In this document: positions 105 to 36,507 of the stretch, piece after piece | Layout of the letters: every line of letters begins with the position of its first letter | Numbering within the stretch: the stretch's first letter is position 1 | NCBI GenBank assembly: GCA_020725425.1 | Contig: DYFA01000006.1 | Coordinates: 15,500 to 79,499 of the forward strand | Reading direction: 5' to 3' | Length of the DNA: 64,000 bases | Source of the DNA: Aneurinibacillus sp. | Lineage (GTDB): Bacteria; Bacillota; UBA5301; DYFA01 | The notes under the pieces: model-generated | What the model was told of the DNA's origin: nothing | The model's input: only the letters and a program-made list of their open reading frames with translations | The model's database searches: none | Made by a program: the position numbers and the translations under genes

Positions 105-809
105 CTAGCCTCCGAGGTAGGCCTTCCTCACCTGCTCGTTGGCTGCAAGGTCCGCCGCGCCGCCGGACAGGGCGATGCTGCCCGTTTCCAGGACATAGCC
201 CTTGTGGGCGATGGAAAGCGCCATGTGGGCGTTCTGCTCCACCAACAGGATGGTCGTCCCCCGCTGGTTGATCTCCCGGATGACCGAGAAGATCTCCTTC
301 ACCAAAAGCGGTGCCAGCCCCATGGACGGCTCGTCGAGCATCATGAGGCGCGGGCGGGCCATGAGGCCCCGGCCCACGGCCAGCATCTGCTGCTCACCGC
401 CGGAGAGAGTGCCGGCCAGTTGCTTCTGCCGCTCCTCGAGGCGGGGGAAGAGCTCGAAAACCCACTTCATGCTCTCCCTGACTTCCCTGTCCGGCCGCTG
501 GAAAGCTCCCATCTCGAGGTTCTCCTTCACTGTGAGGCTGGCGAAGACCCGCCGCCCCTCCGGCACCTGCGTGATCCCGGCCGAAACGATGGCGGGCGGA
601 GTTGCCGCGCTCAGATCCCGCCCCTGGAACAGGATTTTCCCCTGGCGCGCCCGGAGGAGGCCCGAGATGGTCTTGAGGGTGGTGCTCTTCCCGGCGCCGT
701 TCGCCCCGATGAGGGTGACGATCTCCCCTTCCTCGACTTCCAGAGAGATACCCTTCAGGGCGTGGATGGCGCCGTAATAGACGTGCAGGTTCTCGATCTG
801 CAGGAGCAT
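105..809 (-). CDS. livF: Branched-chain amino acid ABC transporter ATP-binding subunit
   Basis: Walker A GANGAGKST, VPEGRRVF, LSGGEQQMLA, DEPSMGLAP, LLVEQN. Confidence 0.95.
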   Translation of the reverse strand: MLLQIENLHVYYGAIHALKGISLEVEEGEIVTLIGANGAGKSTTLKTISGLLRARQGKILFQGRDLSAATPPAIVSAGITQVPEGRRVFASLTVKENLEMGAFQRPDREVRESMKWVFELFPRLEERQKQLAGTLSGGEQQMLAVGRGLMARPRLMMLDEPSMGLAPLLVKEIFSVIREINQRGTTILLVEQNAHMALSIAHKGYVLETGSIALSGGAADLAANEQVRKAYLGG

Positions 810-1573
810 CAGACGGCCTCCTCCCCGAGATAGGCCTCGATCACCTTCGGGTTCCGCTTGATCTCCGCCGGCGGGCCCTCGGCGATCGTCACCCCGTAGT
901 CCAGCACGTAGATCCGTTCGCAGAGCTGCATCACCAGGCTCATGTCGTGCTCGATGAGGAGGATGGTCAGGCTGAACTGGTCCCGGACCCAGCGGATCAG
1001 GTTCAGCAGTTCCTGCGTCTCCTGGGGGTTCATCCCGGCCGCCGGCTCATCGAGGAGGAGCAGCTTGGGCCGGGCAGCCAGCGCCCGGGCGATCTCAAGC
1101 CGCCGCTGCTCGCCGTAGGGCAGGTTCTTGGCGAGCTCGTCGGCCCGGTAGTCCAGCTCGAAGATGGAGAGGAACTCCCGCGCCTTCTGCGTGATCTCCC
1201 GCTCCTCGCGCAGGATCGGGAAGCGGACCATTGAGGCCCAAAGCGAGCTCTTAGCGTTGAGGTGATAGCCGATCTTCACGTTCTCGATGACCGGTAGATT
1301 CTGGAAGAGCCGGATGTTCTGGAAGGTCCGGGCGATCCCGTGCTTGGTCACCTGGTAAGGCTTGAGTCCGTTCAGACGGCAGCCGTCGAAGGTGATCTCC
1401 CCGCGGGTCGGCTCGAAGACCCCGGTCACCAGGTTGAAGATGGTGGTCTTCCCCGCCCCGTTCGGGCCGATCAGGCCGACCAGTTCCCCCGTTTCGATCG
1501 CCATGTCCACATTGGAGACAGCCAACAGGCCTCCGAAAGCCTTGGTCAGGCCTTTGATCTCAAGCAATGCCAT
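809..1573 (-). CDS. livG: Branched-chain amino acid ABC transporter ATP-binding subunit
   Basis: GPNGAGKTT, IARTFQNIRLF, LPYGEQRRLEIARAL, DEPAAGMN, VIEAYLG. Confidence 0.95.
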   Translation of the reverse strand: MALLEIKGLTKAFGGLLAVSNVDMAIETGELVGLIGPNGAGKTTIFNLVTGVFEPTRGEITFDGCRLNGLKPYQVTKHGIARTFQNIRLFQNLPVIENVKIGYHLNAKSSLWASMVRFPILREEREITQKAREFLSIFELDYRADELAKNLPYGEQRRLEIARALAARPKLLLLDEPAAGMNPQETQELLNLIRWVRDQFSLTILLIEHDMSLVMQLCERIYVLDYGVTIAEGPPAEIKRNPKVIEAYLGEEAV

Positions 1574-2558
1574 GTACGTCCCTCCGTCCCGCCTCGCCCG
1601 TCTCCCGGCGCCGCCACAGATCCCGGAAGGCCTGGCTGACCTCCCAGGTGCCGAGGAGCCCCTGCGGCCTCACCAGCATCATCACGATCAGGAGCATCGA
1701 GTAGATCACCATGCGGAGCATGGCGAACTGCCTCAACATCTCCGGCAGGTAGGTCAGGACCGCGGCCGAGAGGATGGAACCAGTCACGCTGCCGAGCCCG
1801 CCCAGGACCACCATCACCAGGACCTCGACGGACTTGAAGAAGCTGAACGACTTGGGGTCGATGAACATCATGTAGTGGGCGTACAGCCCGCCGGCGAGAC
1901 CGGCAAAGGCCGCCCCCACCACGAACGCCGTCACCTTGTACCGGGTGGCGTTGACCCCCATCGTCTCGGCCGCCACCTCGTCCTCCCGGACCGCCAGCAT
2001 GGCCCGGCCGTGGGCGGAGTTGATGAGGTTCGAGATCACGAGGATGGTCAGCGCCGCCAGCGCCTCCGCCACGAAGAACCCCGTCTTGGGCGGGATGCCG
2101 GGCAGCCCGCGGGGGCCGCCGGTGATGTCCAGGTTGACGATGACCACCCGGATGATCTCGCCGAAGCCCAAGGTGGCGATAGCCAGGTAGTCGCCCTTCA
2201 GCCGGAGGGTGGGGATACCGACCACCACCCCCATCACGGCCGCCGCCGCCATCCCGGCGACCAGCACTGCAGCGAAGGGCCAGCGTAGGTGGATGGAGAG
2301 CAGGGCCGAAACGTAAGCCCCCACCGCCATGAACCCGGCGTGACCGATGGAGAACTGGCCGGTGATCCCGTTGATCAGGTTGAGGCTCACCGCCAGGATG
2401 ACGTTGACCATCACCAGGATCAGGATGCCGTTGTAATACCGGTCGATCAGCCCCAGGCCGGAAATCACGTTGATGTAGGCCAGGCCGAGGAGGAACAATG
2501 CGGTGACTATCAGGCTCAGGTAATCCCGGATCTTCTTCCAGCCGAACTGCGTCGCCAT
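1560..2558 (-). CDS. livM: Branched-chain amino acid ABC transporter permease
   Basis: SLNLINGITGQFSIGHAGF, LRLKGDYLAIATLGFGEII, MVVLGGLGS; start set at ATG 2558 after SD GGAGGG. Confidence 0.92.
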   Translation of the reverse strand: MATQFGWKKIRDYLSLIVTALFLLGLAYINVISGLGLIDRYYNGILILVMVNVILAVSLNLINGITGQFSIGHAGFMAVGAYVSALLSIHLRWPFAAVLVAGMAAAAVMGVVVGIPTLRLKGDYLAIATLGFGEIIRVVIVNLDITGGPRGLPGIPPKTGFFVAEALAALTILVISNLINSAHGRAMLAVREDEVAAETMGVNATRYKVTAFVVGAAFAGLAGGLYAHYMMFIDPKSFSFFKSVEVLVMVVLGGLGSVTGSILSAAVLTYLPEMLRQFAMLRMVIYSMLLIVMMLVRPQGLLGTWEVSQAFRDLWRRRETGEAGRRDVHGIA

Positions 2559-2574
2559 TGCCTTCCCTCCCCGG

Positions 2575-3471
2575 TTAGACCTTTTCGCCCACGTTCCGGC
2601 CGAGCAGGCCGACCGGGCGAACGAGCAGGATGATAATGAGGGCGACGAAGGCGGCGGCGTCCTTCCACCCGGAGGAGATGAAGGCCACCACCAGCACCTC
2701 GACGATTCCCATGACAAACCCACCGATCATGGCGCCGGGGATGATCCCGATGCCGCCCAGGACCGCGGCGACGAAGGCCTTGAGTCCGGGCATAATTCCC
2801 ATGAGCGGGTCGATCCGGTTATACACGATGCCGACCAGCACGCCGGCGGCGGCGGCCAGAGCCGAACCGAGGGCGAAGGTCACGGTGATGACCTGGTTGA
2901 CGTCGATCCCCATCAGGTGGGCGGCGTCCCGGTCGTTGGCCACGGCCCGCATCGCCTTGCCGATCTTGGTGTACCGGACGATCCACTGGAGCAGAAACAT
3001 GAGGCCGAAGGTCACGGCCAGAATGAGCACCTGGCGGTTGTTCACGATCAGCCCGCCCACGTTGTACACGGTCAACGGGATGACCTCGGGAAAGGCCCGG
3101 GGATCGGGTTTGAGGATCAACAGCCCCGCATTCTCCAGCAGGAACGAGACCCCGATGGCGGTGATCAGCGCTGATATCCGGCCGGCCTTGCGGATCGGGC
3201 GGTAGGCGAAGAACTCGATCGTCACGCCGGTGAGCGCCGCCACCACCATGGCCAGGACCAGCGCCGGGAAGAAGGAGAGCTTGTATACCGCAGTGGCGAA
3301 GTACCCGGCGAAGGCCCCGACCATGAAGATGTCACCGTGGGCGAAGTTGATCAGCCGAATGATCCCGTAGACCATGGTGTAACCCAAAGCGATGAGGGCG
3401 TAGATGCTCCCGAGCGACACCCCGTTGAACACCTGCTGGATCACCTGTAGGGTCAAGTCATGGGGGCTCAT
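2575..3471 (-). CDS. livH: Branched-chain amino acid ABC transporter permease
   Basis: GSIYALIALGYTMVYGIIRLINFAHG, KAFVAAVLGGIG, RPVGLLG. Confidence 0.95.
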   Translation of the reverse strand: MSPHDLTLQVIQQVFNGVSLGSIYALIALGYTMVYGIIRLINFAHGDIFMVGAFAGYFATAVYKLSFFPALVLAMVVAALTGVTIEFFAYRPIRKAGRISALITAIGVSFLLENAGLLILKPDPRAFPEVIPLTVYNVGGLIVNNRQVLILAVTFGLMFLLQWIVRYTKIGKAMRAVANDRDAAHLMGIDVNQVITVTFALGSALAAAAGVLVGIVYNRIDPLMGIMPGLKAFVAAVLGGIGIIPGAMIGGFVMGIVEVLVVAFISSGWKDAAAFVALIIILLVRPVGLLGRNVGEKV

Positions 3472-3506
3472 GCTTTCACCTCATTACGGACTCCAGTTGG
3501 GCAAAG

Positions 3507-3534
3507 CCCCGGGCCGGGTTGCCCCGGCCCGGGG
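3507..3534 (-). terminator. GC-rich stem-loop after the substrate-binding gene (partial terminator or mRNA stabiliser)
   Basis: Perfect 12-bp inverted repeat CCCCGGGCCGGG-TTGC-CCCGGCCCGGGG followed by CTTT on the minus strand. Confidence 0.55.
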
Positions 3535-3554
3535 ATGGTGGTTATGCGCTCAGC

Positions 3555-4688
3555 TTACGGCTGGACCTTCTTGACGAATTTCTGGGAACCATCCTTCTGG
3601 ACCTGGAGGATGACGGCGGCCTTGACCGGGTTGCGGTTCTCGTCAAAGGTGATCGAGCCGGACACGCCCTTGAAGCCCTTCGTTTTGGCGAGAGCGTCCC
3701 GGATGGCCTTCGGGTCGGCCTTGCCCGCCCGGCGGATAGCGTCGAAGAGCAGATTGGCCGCATCGTAACCCAGCGCCGCCAGGGCGTCGGGAGTCTGCCC
3801 GTACTTCGCCTTGTAGGCCTTCACGAACTTCTGGGTGACCGGGTCCTGGTCATCCGGCGAGTAGTGGTTGGTGAAGTAGTGGCCGACCACCGCCTCTTTC
3901 CCGATCTCGAACAGCTTCGGCGAGTCGAAGCCGTCGCCGCCGATGAGCGGGACGTTGATGCCGAGCTGGCGGGCCTGCCGGGAGATCAGAGCGACGTCGT
4001 TGTAGTAGGAGCCGACGTAGATGGCGTCGGGGTTAGTCGCCTTGATCTTGGTGAGCTGGGCGGAGAAGTCCTGGTCACCGGTGGAAAACTTCTCTTCCGC
4101 CACGACCTTCCCCCCGAGCTTCTCGAAGTTCTCCTTGAAGAACTGGCAGAGCCCCATGGCGTAGTCGGAGGTGACCTCCGGCATCACGGCGACCCTCTTG
4201 AACTTCAACTCCTTCGCCGCGAAGACCGCCATGACCCGCCCCTGGAAGGGGTCGATGAAGCAGGCCCGGAAGATGTAGTCCCCCACCTGGGTCACTCTCG
4301 GGTTGGTCGAGGTCGGCGTGATCACCGGGATTCCGGCCTGCTGGGCGATTGGCCCCGCCGCCAGGGTGTTGGTCGAGGTGACAGGGCCCAGGATGCCCAC
4401 GACCTTGTCCTTGAAGATGAGCTTGTTGTAAGCGTTGGCGGACTCGGCGGCGTCAGACTTGTTGTCCTCGATGACGAGCTCGATCCGGCCGACGCCCTTG
4501 ATCCCGCCCTTGGCATTGATCTCCTCCGCCGCCATCTTGGTGGCGTTCACCGCCGACTGGCCGAAGGTGGCGACGTTGCCGGTCTGCTCATACACCACGC
4601 CGACCTTAACTACCTTCTCGGCGGCGAGGGCGCTCAACCCTCCGAGCAGAAACAGGATCAGGAACAGTCCCACAGCCTTCTTCACCAT
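3555..4688 (-). CDS. Branched-chain amino acid ABC transporter substrate-binding protein (LivJ/LivK family)
   Basis: Signal peptide; EINAKGGI, FRACFIDPFQG, DQDFSAQLTKIK, ALGYDA, GVSGSITFDENRNP. Confidence 0.92.
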   Translation of the reverse strand: MVKKAVGLFLILFLLGGLSALAAEKVVKVGVVYEQTGNVATFGQSAVNATKMAAEEINAKGGIKGVGRIELVIEDNKSDAAESANAYNKLIFKDKVVGILGPVTSTNTLAAGPIAQQAGIPVITPTSTNPRVTQVGDYIFRACFIDPFQGRVMAVFAAKELKFKRVAVMPEVTSDYAMGLCQFFKENFEKLGGKVVAEEKFSTGDQDFSAQLTKIKATNPDAIYVGSYYNDVALISRQARQLGINVPLIGGDGFDSPKLFEIGKEAVVGHYFTNHYSPDDQDPVTQKFVKAYKAKYGQTPDALAALGYDAANLLFDAIRRAGKADPKAIRDALAKTKGFKGVSGSITFDENRNPVKAAVILQVQKDGSQKFVKKVQP

Positions 4689-4828
4689 GCTTCTGACTCC
4701 TTTCTTCTTCTCGTGTCTTCCTTCACCTTAACTCGTCCAAACGACAACTCCTGCAAAACCGACCGGTGCCGGCCTCGCGGGCCACTGCTTCCTCCTCACC
4801 TCCTCCCGCCGGGCAGGCCGTCGGGCCT

Positions 4829-4866
4829 GGAAAGGAACGACCCTGTTCCACGGGGGAACAGGGTCG
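4829..4866 (-). terminator. Intrinsic terminator (attenuator) in the liv operon leader
   Basis: Minus strand CGACCCTGTTCC-CCCGT-GGAACAGGGTCG (12-bp stem) followed by TTCCTTTCC. Confidence 0.7.
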
Positions 4867-4888
4867 CCAACCATGCTCTCGGTTGCCA

Positions 4889-4936
4889 CTACGCCCTACT
4901 CCCTACTCGCAGCGCCCGCAGCGCCAGAATCCACAT
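4889..4936 (-). CDS. Putative attenuator leader peptide MWILALRALRVGSRA (15 aa)
   Basis: ATG 4936 to TAG 4889, SD-like GGGGGTG upstream; 5 Ile/Leu/Val codons in positions 3-11; 3' end complementary to the terminator 5' arm. Confidence 0.6.
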   Translation of the reverse strand: MWILALRALRVGSRA

Positions 4937-5032
4937 CCGGGGGCACACCCCCGCTGGTTTAGGCTAAACTTCTTCCCACCATACGGAATTCCTTCTTAGG
5001 AAGGGAAACTTTTTGCTGGTCGGTGAGCTGCC

Positions 5033-5806
5033 CTAGGGCCCCCCGAGGGCCGCGGCGATCGTCGCGGCACCGAGGGCCCAGACATACCAGGAGAAGATGG
5101 TCAGATGACGCCGGCGCACCACCCCGAGCAGAAGCCAGATGGCGGCGAGGCCCGAGAGAAAGGCGGCGAGGAAGCCGACGACCAGGGGGGCGCTCTCCAG
5201 GAAGGAACCGGCAGGGAGGTGGCGCAGCTGCAGCACCGTCGCGCCCAGGATGACCGGTATGGAGAGCAGGAAGGAGAACCGGGCGGCGGTCTCGCGCTCC
5301 AGCCCTCTAGCCAAGCCGGTGGCGATCGTCGCTCCTGAGCGGGAGATTCCCGGGATGATGGCCACTGCCTGAGCGACCCCCACCCACCAGGCGTCCGCCA
5401 CCGTCATCTGCTCCGCGGCGCGCCGGTCACGGTACGAGGCCGCCAGCCGCTCGGCGCCCCACAGGATAAAGCCTGTGCCGATGAGCGCCACCCCCACCGC
5501 GAGCACGGAGGAGAAGAGTCGGGTGAAGAGGCCCTCCAGCGCCACCCCAGCCAGCCCGGCAGGCACGGAGCCGGCGAGGAGCAGGAGCAGCCGCCGCCGA
5601 TCCCGCAGGAGGGCCCGAAGGTCCGCGCGGAAGTATACAACCACCGCCAGCAGGGTGGCGAAGTGAAGGAAGACGTCGAAGGTCACGCCGGCCTCGGGCA
5701 CCTTGAGGTAGTGCTGAAGCACCACCAGGTGTCCCGAGCTCGATACCGGCAGAAACTCGGTCAAACCTTGTGTCAAGCCTAAGACCGCCGCGGTGAAGAT
5801 GTTCAC
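5033..5806 (-). CDS. uppP: Undecaprenyl-diphosphate phosphatase (BacA/UppP)
   Basis: QGLTEFLPVSSSGH, PGISRSGAT, AARFSFLLSIP; GTG start at 5806 with SD GAGGAGG. Confidence 0.95.
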   Translation of the reverse strand: MNIFTAAVLGLTQGLTEFLPVSSSGHLVVLQHYLKVPEAGVTFDVFLHFATLLAVVVYFRADLRALLRDRRRLLLLLAGSVPAGLAGVALEGLFTRLFSSVLAVGVALIGTGFILWGAERLAASYRDRRAAEQMTVADAWWVGVAQAVAIIPGISRSGATIATGLARGLERETAARFSFLLSIPVILGATVLQLRHLPAGSFLESAPLVVGFLAAFLSGLAAIWLLLGVVRRRHLTIFSWYVWALGAATIAAALGGP

Positions 5807-5810
5807 TGGC

Positions 5811-6806
5811 CTACCTCCTCCCCGCCGCTTCCCGGGTGGCCGCCCCGCCGGGGCCTCTCTTGCCGTTCGCCGCCTTTGCGGCAATTCCTTTCTCCAGCCA
5901 CCGCCCTACCGGCCACGCCAGCGGCAACGCCGCCGCGGCGGTCGCCAGGTTGAAGAGGGCGTGGGCGTTGGCCACCTGCCGGGCGAAGGAGGGCGAGGTC
6001 GCAGCCACCAGGTTCGCGAGCCCTGGAACGAAGGGCAACACCGCTGCCGCCCCGGCGACGTTGAAGACCAGGTTGACCAGGCCGGCCCACCGCCCGGCCC
6101 GGCCGGCCGCCACACCAGCCAAAAGTCCCGGGAGACAGCTGCCGATGTTCCCCCCCAGGACCAGGTGGATGGCGCCGGTCAAGGTGAGCAGCCCCTGGGC
6201 GGCCAGATTCATGACCAGGCCAATAAAGAGCGTGCTGGACTGGACCAGACCGGTGAAGACTGTCCCCGCGAGCACCCCCACCACCGGCCGGTCAGCCACC
6301 TGCGACAGCCAGCCGGGGAGCCAGGCCGGTATCCCGCTGCCGCACGCCCCGCCCAACGCCTCCAGGCCGAGAAAGACCAGGCCCACGCCGAGCAGCGCCT
6401 GTCCTGCGGCGCCGGCTTTCGGCACCCGGCGGAACAACGAGCGGTGCCCGGCGAGGAGCGCTCCCCCTGCCACTGCCGCCAGCCACCCGAGGGTGGTGGT
6501 GGAGAAGCTCATCAGTTGCGCCGTGGCCGTGGTCCCCACGTTGGCCCCCAGCACCGCGCCGATAGCCGCCGGGAACCCTACTGCTCCGGCTTCCACCAGG
6601 CTGACCACGGCGACCGTCACCACGCCGCTCGAGTGAAGCAGGGCTGCCGCGCCGGCGCCCAAAAGCCACGCCAGCGCTGGATCCTGACCGTACCGGCCGA
6701 GCGACCGGCGGACCGCCCGCCCCCCGAGACGTTCCAGGCCCGCGGTCAAGCTGCGGATACCGACAAGAAAGGCGCCTATCCCGACGACCAACCAAGCGGC
6801 CGCCAC
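5811..6806 (-). CDS. Na+/Pi cotransporter family protein (YqeW-like)
   Basis: Repeated motifs LHSSG...GANVGTT and VQSST...GGNIGSC; RQVANAHALFN. Confidence 0.85.
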   Translation of the reverse strand: MAAAWLVVGIGAFLVGIRSLTAGLERLGGRAVRRSLGRYGQDPALAWLLGAGAAALLHSSGVVTVAVVSLVEAGAVGFPAAIGAVLGANVGTTATAQLMSFSTTTLGWLAAVAGGALLAGHRSLFRRVPKAGAAGQALLGVGLVFLGLEALGGACGSGIPAWLPGWLSQVADRPVVGVLAGTVFTGLVQSSTLFIGLVMNLAAQGLLTLTGAIHLVLGGNIGSCLPGLLAGVAAGRAGRWAGLVNLVFNVAGAAAVLPFVPGLANLVAATSPSFARQVANAHALFNLATAAAALPLAWPVGRWLEKGIAAKAANGKRGPGGAATREAAGRR

Positions 6807-35828: not shown

Positions 35829-35876
35829 TGGTGTCCCTCCAGAAACAGCCTGACGCTGGGAACGGACAATATGAAG

Positions 35877-36497
35877 TGACGGGTGGCAGCCCAGCGAGTA
35901 AACATTGCGGCTTGAGGTCCAGCTGGTTTTCCCATAAGGCGCACCGGTCGTTGCCGCACCGGCGGTTTCCCTTTGAGCGCCCCTCGGCGGCGTCGCCGCG
36001 CGCCGGGCTGGATTACCACTTAGTCCACACTCTAATCCCCGCAGGGCTTCCTTGATGGAACAGCCTAGGAGATTTCCTCGACGGCGCCGGCCATGCCCTA
36101 TCCTCTGTTGCAGCCCAACTTTCCCGCCGCACCGGCGGACGGCCTTACGCGTCGGCCGGCCGCCTGAACCCGGCGATCCCGACTGGGCCACTTCAAGGCA
36201 GGCTACGCTGCACCCAGCACAGAGCTTAAGTACGACAAGCGCCTGTTACTATGTACCGAAGTGCAGGTTCACGCCCAAGCCGTAGGTTTTCTGGTCACCC
36301 CACGCACTTGGGTCTCCGCGGGAGGGGGTCAACGCCCGCATGCCATTGCGGATCGCCCCGCACCCTTAACCCCCAGCACCAACCACCGACTGGGCGTCGG
36401 CAGCCAGCACCAGGGACTTCATCGATGTGCCCTTGACGGATCTTTAGGCCCGTCTTCGGACACGGCGGCACCGACTAGAATACTGCGCCACCCATCA
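35877..36497 (-). ncRNA. ole: OLE (ornate large extremophilic) RNA
   Basis: ~620 nt closed by TGATGGGTGGC/GCCACCCGTCA pairing; hallmark segments GCAGTATTCTAGTC, GGGCACATCGATGAAGTCCCTGGTGCTGGC, GCAGCGTAGCCTGCCTTGA, GATTAGAGTGTGGACTAAGTGGTAATCCAGCC, AAAGGGAAACCGCC, TGGGAAAACC; ispA...ole-oapA-dxs synteny. Confidence 0.9.
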
Positions 36498-36507
36498 AGT
36501 GGTTAGT

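Follow-up and report, generated by a model that had tools for sequence, protein, structure and literature searches.

The liv leader and its mutually exclusive folds

Here, we analyze the leader of a putative branched-chain amino-acid transport (liv) operon in Aneurinibacillus sp. The window, meaning the whole stretch of DNA under analysis, comprises 64,000 nucleotides (nt) of contig DYFA01000006.1 (assembly GCA_020725425.1), and all positions are given within it. The source genome, called G000, is 2.38 Mb in size, 67% G+C, and 96.85% complete. On the minus strand, uppP/bacA (5884-5033) is followed by a 344-nt spacer and then by livJ, livH, livM, livG, and livF. The spacer harbors a predicted intrinsic terminator and, upstream of it, a block of NAG triplets (N, any nucleotide) that can pair with the terminator 5' arm. 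The features are listed below, the leader elements first and their surroundings after.

4889 to 4908, minus strand: NAG-triplet block GAGUAGGGAGUAGGGCGUAG, 20 nt, proposed protein-binding site A; the most conserved segment, with 16 of 20 columns invariant (80%)
4868 to 4885, minus strand: hairpin P2, CAACC-loop-GGUUG, inside the antiterminator; stem sequence conserved, loop variable
4838 to 4866, minus strand: predicted intrinsic terminator hairpin, perfect 12 bp with a 5-nt loop, CCCGU; -22.3 kcal/mol when folded alone
4829 to 4837, minus strand: U-rich tail TTCCTTTCC / UUCCUUUCC, interrupted and weak; the tails in G002 and G001 are better
4689 to 4709, minus strand: second NAG-N4 series of three, AAG-AAGA-AAG-GAGU-CAG-AAGC, proposed site B, ending at the livJ AUG
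4939 to 4952, minus strand: hairpin P1, GGGGG-UGUG-CCCCC, directly 5' of the ATG of the upstream open reading frame (uORF); stem kept, with G-C changed to A-U in G002
4889 to 4936, minus strand: uORF MWILALRALRVGSRA with its stop codon; not conserved, and lacking a Shine-Dalgarno sequence
4969 to 5017, minus strand: conserved 5' block, 34 of 49 columns invariant in three genomes
4959 to 4982, minus strand: putative mini-ORF, ATG GTG GGA AGA AGT TTA GCC TAA (MVGRSLA, stop)
5033 to 5884, minus strand: uppP/bacA, undecaprenyl-diphosphatase family (Pfam BacA, 250 bits), co-directional with the leader
105 to 4688, minus strand: livJ (4688-3555), livH (3471-2575), livM (2723-1560), livG (1573-809), and livF (809-105)

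The Pfam matches of the liv genes (Peripla_BP_6, two of BPD_transp_2, and ABC_tran plus BCA_ABC_TP_C) point to a livJHMGF-type ABC system for amino-acid uptake, the substrate of which we infer; the NCBIfam subfamily of branched-chain amino-acid-binding proteins scores LivJ at 194 bits, versus a cut-off of 477. The terminator hairpin consists of a 5' arm at 4866-4855 (CGACCCTGTTCC), a loop at 4854-4850, and a 3' arm at 4849-4838. A competing helix draws on the same 5' arm. Specifically, GGGAGUAGGG (4903-4894), within the block, forms 10 contiguous pairs with CCCUGUUCCC (4863-4854). An earlier reading of this DNA, made from the sequence alone, had proposed a 12-bp terminator with a tail, an inner CAACC/GGTTG hairpin, and an alternative pairing in this segment. 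Each of these exists: the terminator at 4866-4838 with its tail, interrupted, at 4837-4829, the inner hairpin at 4885-4868, and the alternative pairing, which turns out to be better than proposed, with 10 contiguous pairs in place of nine including G-U pairs plus two more. Folds, Pfam matches, and conservation together bear out a terminator with a mutually exclusive upstream pairing ahead of a livJHMGF-type operon.

The predicted energetics are those of a switch that depends on how much of the leader has been transcribed. When the nascent G000 RNA is cut before the terminator 3' arm, the minimum-energy fold is the antiterminator, at -47.1 kcal/mol. In the full G000 leader, the terminator state lies at -61.3 kcal/mol versus -53.2 kcal/mol for the enforced antiterminator. 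For G002 and G001, even the full leader has the antiterminator as its minimum-energy fold.

Orthologous leaders were identified through the closest LivJ proteins, namely those of G002 (82% identical), G001 (67%), and G007 and G003 (55-56%). G000, G002, and G001 make up family 1, G007 and G003 family 2, and four further genomes family 4. In the three family-1 genomes, 12 of 12, 11 of 12, and 10 of 12 terminator pairs are kept, with two double compensatory changes in G002, and the antiterminator retains 10 of 10, 9 of 10, and 9 of 10 pairs. This joint conservation of terminator and competing helix in three genomes appears to be more than chance would produce. RNAalifold additionally predicts a long-range helix between CCUUCCU in the 5' block and AGUAGGG in the NAG block, with one double change among the three sequences.

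No known RNA family accounts for the region. T-box leaders are the usual RNA control of amino-acid genes in Bacillota, and the sequence-only reading had seen none here. The Rfam covariance search agrees: the spacer has no match at the gathering threshold, and positions 4600-5100, searched on both strands to E=10, return three chance-level matches (E 5-7.3) and no T-box. Across the genome there are 10 T-box (RF00230) matches, none of them at the liv locus (C40:19-21 kb).

Several results count against a regulatory element at this locus. The consensus terminator scan did not flag the hairpin because its U-rich tail, weak in G000, is interrupted. The 161-nt fold is no stabler than shuffled sequences (z -1.41; 22 of 200 shuffles equal it). 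A consensus promoter scan returned nothing passing on either side of the terminator. Judged on sequence and predicted folds, we regard the segment 4829-4960 as the core of a conserved transcription attenuator in the liv leader, and the locus is probably a regulatory terminator/antiterminator.

The NAG-triplet block within and beyond the liv leader

The block carries UAG-GGAG-UAG-GGCG-UAG, that is, UAG-N4-UAG-N4-UAG, at 4905-4889. G002 has the identical series, and G001 has UAG-GGAG-AAG-GGUG-GAG. As the antiterminator 5' strand (4903-4894), the block pairs with the terminator 5' arm in all three family-1 leaders. The UAG-N4-UAG-N4-UAG string occurs twice in the 2.38-Mb genome, versus about 3.7 occurrences expected by our own arithmetic. 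Thus, the string itself is unremarkable, and it is its place and its conservation that are remarkable. A pattern derived from the block matches in 5 of the 11 genomes of the class, each time at the liv leader; one extra G000 match falls inside a coding region.

The block also persists where its pairing partner does not. In family 2 (G007 and G003), the block is kept as GAGUAGUAGGGAGCAGGGUG, while the terminator has a wholly different sequence; therefore, the block is not conserved merely as the complement of a terminator arm. In the four family-4 genomes, a variant, NAGUAG-N-NAGNAG, occupies a CGGGG/CCCCG hairpin loop ahead of livJ.

A second leader in family 2 possesses the same block, in the form GCGAGUAGCGGAGUAG(G/A)GUCGGAGUAUAG (L248/L253 in G007:C19; L254 in G003:C212). 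This leader follows a TTGACA-N17-TATAAT promoter, contains a 14-15-bp terminator with a U-run, and precedes a gene of the isopropylmalate/citramalate/homocitrate-synthase family. In its nascent fold, the block pairs with the terminator 5' arm. The leader is about 270 nt long and UAG-rich, with 11 and 9 UAG in the two genomes versus about 5 expected, and it begins with a tandem UACUUUAG UACUUUAG UAG. The G007 version matches no Rfam family, and orthologues of the synthase gene in other families have short, plain leaders. The presence of one short linear motif in two otherwise different leaders of one genome points to a trans-acting reader rather than to a folded aptamer.

In G000, the second NAG series, site B, runs across the Shine-Dalgarno sequence of livJ (4703-4697). 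The genome-wide rate of period-7 NAG triples is 0.040 per 320 nt, whereas the liv leader contains three: the block accounts for one, and the other two overlie the livJ Shine-Dalgarno sequence. Among 1,434 crude gene calls in G000, liv is one of just two whose upstream regions contain three such triples.

Broader scans located few further copies. LivJ-based scans of public genome contigs (L044-L123) and metagenome contigs (L124-L203), 80 loci each and searched by regular expression, recovered the block only in L044 and L045; beyond these two already known loci, the best LivJ relatives are 55% and 54% identical. The public records of L044 and L045 are titled Chitinophagales and Betaproteobacteria, yet a genome search places them in the same family and genus as G000, which is of Bacillota type (T-boxes, TRAP, CodY, and the ornate large extremophilic, or OLE, RNA), and the titles look mislabelled. 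The OLE RNA of G000 lies within the window, at 35867-36507 on the minus strand, and is full length (Rfam RF01071, 463 bits, model positions 1-616 of 616). A phylum-wide pattern scan matched 70 of 401 genomes, and a reversed control pattern matched at a similar rate. The 30 loci retrieved from that scan comprise coding sequence, 7-mer tandem repeats (G032, G280), lysine-riboswitch-like leaders (our own label; lysA follows one of them), and ordinary ribosome sites. One match of that scan, L217 (G192:C8:643647), contains GGGGAGUAGAGGAGUAGGGAGUUAC in an intergenic region 167 nt before leuA; it belongs to a 5.6-Mb genome of another family, and the sequence resembles the family-4 variant.

Which factor could decide between the two folds? 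We favor, tentatively, a protein-dependent attenuator that combines the logic of the TRAP system with spacing like that of HutP sites, in which a NAG-reading protein is the sensor, and we put its probability at roughly 0.4. Four other explanations have to be weighed against it.

Ribosome, RNA, or plain terminator

Two explanations assign the decision to a translating ribosome. According to the sequence-only reading, a ribosome on MWILALRALRVGSRA would sense charged Leu-, Ile-, or Val-tRNA: a stall would free the antiterminator, and arrival at the UAG at 4891-4889 would bring termination. The uORF does lie where that reading put it, from the ATG at 4936 to the TAG at 4889 on the minus strand, 15 codons in all. 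Its end falls inside the antiterminator strand, the G002 frame described below ends at the same UAG, and, in this Arg-, Ala-, and Gly-rich genome, only 3.4% of chance ATG ORFs of 13-18 codons are equally rich in Ile, Leu, and Val. There is precedent, too. The reading's premise, that Bacillota seldom use such leader peptides, is weaker than it was put, given that Staphylococcus aureus ilvD has one; the ilvD report (PMC5794164) describes a ribosome-binding site, three Ile then two Leu codons plus three more Leu codons, and genus-wide conservation. Like that leader and the classical ilv/leu leaders, the liv leader pairs a terminator with an alternative fold ahead of an operon related to branched-chain amino acids. 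Unlike ilvD as described there, the liv uORF has no ribosome-binding site, codon run, or conservation. The 16 nt ahead of its ATG (GCCTAAACCAGCGGGG/GGGGTGTGCCCCCGG) lie within a conserved GC hairpin that adjoins the ATG and contain no GGAG or AGGA at 4-12 nt; in contrast, livJ has the Shine-Dalgarno sequence AAAGGAG. Ile, Leu, and Val make up 5 of its 14 non-initiator residues, as expected from a proteome frequency of 0.229 (P=0.20), and the longest adjacent run of regulatory codons is I-L. Start and frame are kept in none of the four orthologous leaders: the only frame in G002 starts at a different ATG and spans 31 codons (4 of 30 residues Ile, Leu, or Val), G001 has no frame through the region, and G007 has an unrelated 27-codon frame, whose ATG corresponds to ACG in the sister genome G003. 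When the three genomes are aligned, few segments are as poorly conserved as the 5' part of the uORF, in which 38% of columns are invariant and a gap breaks the frame, versus 80% for the 20 nt of its last codons; therefore, the constraint acts at the nucleotide level. With a ribosome footprint masked at codon 4 or at the stop codon, the predicted minimum-energy fold is still the terminator, and a ribosome stalled at codons 9-11 would itself cover the block. In a 67% G+C genome, the mere presence of Leu, Ile, and Val in a short ORF is no evidence of a leader peptide, and we consider control by this uORF highly improbable. The second ribosome-based explanation turns on the better placed mini-ORF at 4982-4959, which has an AAGGA ribosome site and a single rare Leu codon (UUA; CUA in G001). 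Its translation would rearrange both the 5' hairpin and the long-range helix that involves the block. ATG and AAGGA are present in all three family-1 leaders, the G000 and G001 versions (the latter MGRTLA, stop) differ by a Ser/Thr exchange and the synonymous UUA/CUA change, and CCUUCCU just upstream can pair with the block. However, the same letters serve equally well as a -10 box. The 5' block, which contains a palindrome, CCTTC-N4-GAAGG, at 5004-4991, has a -10-like TATGGT at 4983-4978 that is TACAAT in G001 and CATGGT in G002, all keeping A2 and T6, so the 5' block fits two descriptions, a promoter accompanied by an operator-like palindrome and the AAGGA site plus mini-ORF. The G001 spacing from ribosome site to ATG is 11 nt, the G002 frame from the same start has no stop at the corresponding place and runs 31 codons to the third UAG of the block, there is one regulatory codon only, and families 2 and 4 lack the mini-ORF. 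Control through the mini-ORF is very unlikely. As a separate observation, the three UAGs of the block downstream occupy all three reading frames.

The remaining explanations dispense with both ribosome and protein. In one, the block and its flanks form a small-molecule aptamer, that is, a riboswitch, or pair with a small RNA or tRNA, and the RNA alone decides the fold. The architecture is that of a conserved expression platform, the CCUUCCU/AGUAGGG helix could function as an anti-antiterminator, and, given no Rfam match, such an RNA would be a new class. Yet the sequence from P1 to the block is poorly conserved and variable in length, the two leaders of G007 share the short linear block and no common fold, and the context of the block differs among families 1, 2, and 4, which supply 3, 2, and 4 sequences, respectively, too few for a proper covariation test. 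An RNA-only sensor is, on this evidence, unlikely. In the other explanation, there is no regulator at all: the hairpin would be the terminator of the upstream gene, the liv promoter would lie downstream of 4829, and the block would be conserved for some other reason. In all five genomes, the gene upstream (uppP or, in G002, a Na/Pi-cotransporter-like gene) runs in the same direction and lacks any other terminator; judged from sequence and ORFs, uppP has none of its own ahead of the leader. Moreover, no promoter was recognised upstream of the hairpin. Against a plain terminator, the 140 nt between terminator and livJ are GC-rich, unconserved among G000, G001, and G002, and devoid of a promoter-like site, while the terminator is preceded by the block, the competing helix, and the conserved -10-like element. 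Furthermore, the synthase leader of G007 and G003 has the same block-plus-terminator arrangement after a canonical promoter. We regard this explanation as quite unlikely.

A proposed protein reader and the CBS-HutP fusion as candidate

Under the protein-dependent attenuator that we favor, the purine-rich block, on emerging from the polymerase, would by default pair with the pyrimidine-rich 4863-4854 around P2 and allow read-through into liv. Once the 3' arm is transcribed, the same 4863-4854 stretch could join the stabler 12-bp terminator. The notion is that a trans-acting oligomeric protein reads NAG triplets spaced 7 nt apart, so that a protein, and not the ribosome, decides. Loaded with its signal, the protein would hold the block single-stranded; the antiterminator would be blocked, transcription would terminate at 4837-4829, and the operon would be off. 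At the series 4709-4689, the same protein could mask the livJ ribosome site and add translational repression. In this scheme, we infer protein binding, the identity of the protein, its ligand, the direction of control, and the transcription start.

TRAP is the closest model for the logic. As in the Bacillus subtilis trp leader, (G/U)AG-type triplets lie in the antiterminator 5' strand, such that binding would let the terminator form, and a second triplet series covers a Shine-Dalgarno sequence, comparable to the TRAP sites at trpG and trpP. Unlike TRAP sites, which contain 9-11 triplets with 2-3-nt spacers, the liv block contains five triplets separated by 0, 1, and 4 nt, and the operon under control differs from that of the trp leader. 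TRAP itself is encoded in G000 (mtrB, C18:94827-95018) and in 10 of the 11 genomes of the class. G000 possesses a TRAP-type GAG-N2 leader before an aroF/trpE-like gene (G000:C11:57455-57575), with a TTGACA-N17-TAGAAT promoter, about eight GAG for the most part 2 nt apart, followed by a hairpin and U-run. As the liv factor, TRAP is unlikely, and we rejected it: it has its own site at aroF/trpE, and the longest period-5 or period-6 chain in the G000 liv leader is 2-3, no better than in shuffled sequences; the other liv leaders likewise show no chain beyond chance length.

HutP supplies the model for the spacing. PMC2425495 and PMC12591593 give the rule for its site: three NAG per face of the hexamer, with the A and the G contacted by protein. 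A HutP-type site comprises three NAG about 7 nt apart in single-stranded RNA next to a terminator, and the series at 4905-4889 has exactly this spacing. G000 encodes a single HutP-family protein, 257 aa long, in which a CBS pair is fused to a HutP domain (G000:C38:23444-24214; L036 1477-2250, minus strand); its gene sits between ispDF and gltX. The Pfam HutP family PF09021 matches it at 97.7-99.3 bits, versus a cut-off of 25. The modelled C-terminal domain (pLDDT 92.4) is predicted to have the HutP fold: its ten best fold matches in the PDB are all HutP, with TM scores of 0.62-0.80, and include the HutP-RNA complex 1WMQ. With the whole protein as query, CBS/AcuB matches dominate. Across 21 orthologues, conservation is far higher in the HutP-like domain than in the CBS pair. 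Of 401 sampled genomes of the phylum, 35 encode the fusion: all 11 of the class and 24 more. Close members of the group are named "acetoin utilization protein AcuB" by one source; for CBS-HutP fusions, this name is a mislabel. Unlike HutP, the candidate has a CBS pair at its N-terminus. Searches of the 96.85%-complete G000 genome found no urocanase and no histidine ammonia-lyase. With no hut genes found, CBS-HutP therefore has no hut operon to control. Its signal could be an amino acid or an adenine nucleotide. In our search of openly accessible main texts, no printed link between HutP and CBS domains was found, and a 2025 review of RNA-binding antiterminators contains neither "CBS" nor "branched-chain".

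The distribution of sites offers a test of this candidate. We scored LivJ-homologue loci as positive if the region from -300 to +20 contains at least one period-7 NAG triple. Among fusion-bearing genomes, 21 of 36 loci are positive, including 14 of 25 outside the class, which were not used in forming the hypothesis. The comparison sets gave 5 of 19 for other relatives and 8 of 144 for loci from diverse public contigs. No enrichment is seen at LivJ loci for periods 5, 6, 8, or 9. Of the ilvC ribosome sites, 6 of 13 are positive with the fusion versus 0 of 10 without it; in G000 (C27), the ilvC ribosome site is overlain by a chain of four NAG at 7-nt spacing.

Several observations stand beside this association. 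In six fusion-bearing loci from outside the class (L279, L285, L286, L289, L281, and L284), the livJ start region recurrently reads GAGGAGGUAGUGAGCAGUGAGAAG, a tandem NAGUGAG 7-mer across the Shine-Dalgarno sequence and GUG start that provides four NAG 7 nt apart. In G000, NAG series of 7-nt spacing or GAGUAG pairs lie over ribosome sites at ilvC (C27), C25:42900, C33:70273, and C15:19050-19095; by our reading of the N-termini, the genes are ilvC, a glutamate-synthase-like gene, a PaaK-like CoA ligase gene, and an acyl-CoA synthetase gene. GAGUAG pairs within 30 nt number nine in G000 versus about 1.4 expected by our own calculation, and the leaders that stand out are those of liv, the acyl-CoA synthetase, and the PaaK-like ligase, two of the three being ribosome sites. 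These NAG series over ribosome sites may represent a small regulon or chance.

Various results argue against a NAG-reading CBS-HutP protein. Regarding the domain, a sequence search of the fused domain against the PDB returned no HutP; the same search with a canonical relative returned none either. The fused domain is 22-30% identical to 12 canonical HutP-family proteins of relatives, and most of the near-invariant canonical columns differ in it, including four His columns. Hfq and CsrA are also encoded. Regarding the site, HutP needs two sites 12-20 nt apart flanking a GC-rich stem; the second liv series lies about 180 nt away, and 4888-4838 contains no second NAG series of three. HutP, in response to L-histidine plus Mg2+, opens its terminator, that is, it causes antitermination, whereas the liv site lies in the antiterminator strand and binding there should therefore cause termination, the opposite outcome. 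The spacing itself varies: the family-2 block has spacers of 4 and 5 nt and its second leader 5-nt spacers, the 7-nt periodicity of family 1 may result in part from the complementarity between block and terminator arm CCCUGUUCCC, and NAGNAG runs also fit an A-R-N repeat. Regarding the association, it is confounded by relatedness: tallied by hand by family, 6 of 10 fusion-bearing versus 5 of 19 other families are positive, a difference that is not significant. Many positives outside the class overlie purine-rich ribosome sites, and, across G000 upstream regions overall, period-7 triples do not exceed those of period 8 or 5.

Weighing these points, the link between CBS-HutP and the NAG site is suggestive only. 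The fusion is the best candidate for the sensor, and that it is in fact the sensor is possible but doubtful. We give similarly guarded odds to the wider proposal that CBS-HutP fusions could constitute a new class of signal-responsive RNA-binding attenuation proteins that read 7-nt-spaced NAG at the leaders or ribosome sites of liv, ilvC, and isopropylmalate-synthase-family genes, and that would switch these genes off by blocking antiterminators and masking Shine-Dalgarno sequences.

Control of branched-chain amino-acid pathways in Bacillota is otherwise attributed to T-boxes, CodY, and a small number of leader peptides. The block-plus-terminator design, even if no protein is involved, represents an undescribed cis-regulatory RNA that matches no Rfam family. 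If the protein-dependent attenuator and its candidate reader are correct, CBS-HutP would be the third natural triplet-repeat RNA-binding regulator, beside TRAP and HutP, and a conserved HutP-fold family would gain a function in organisms in which no hut genes were found. HutP-type site geometry and TRAP-type logic would then be united in the control of branched-chain amino-acid transport and synthesis.

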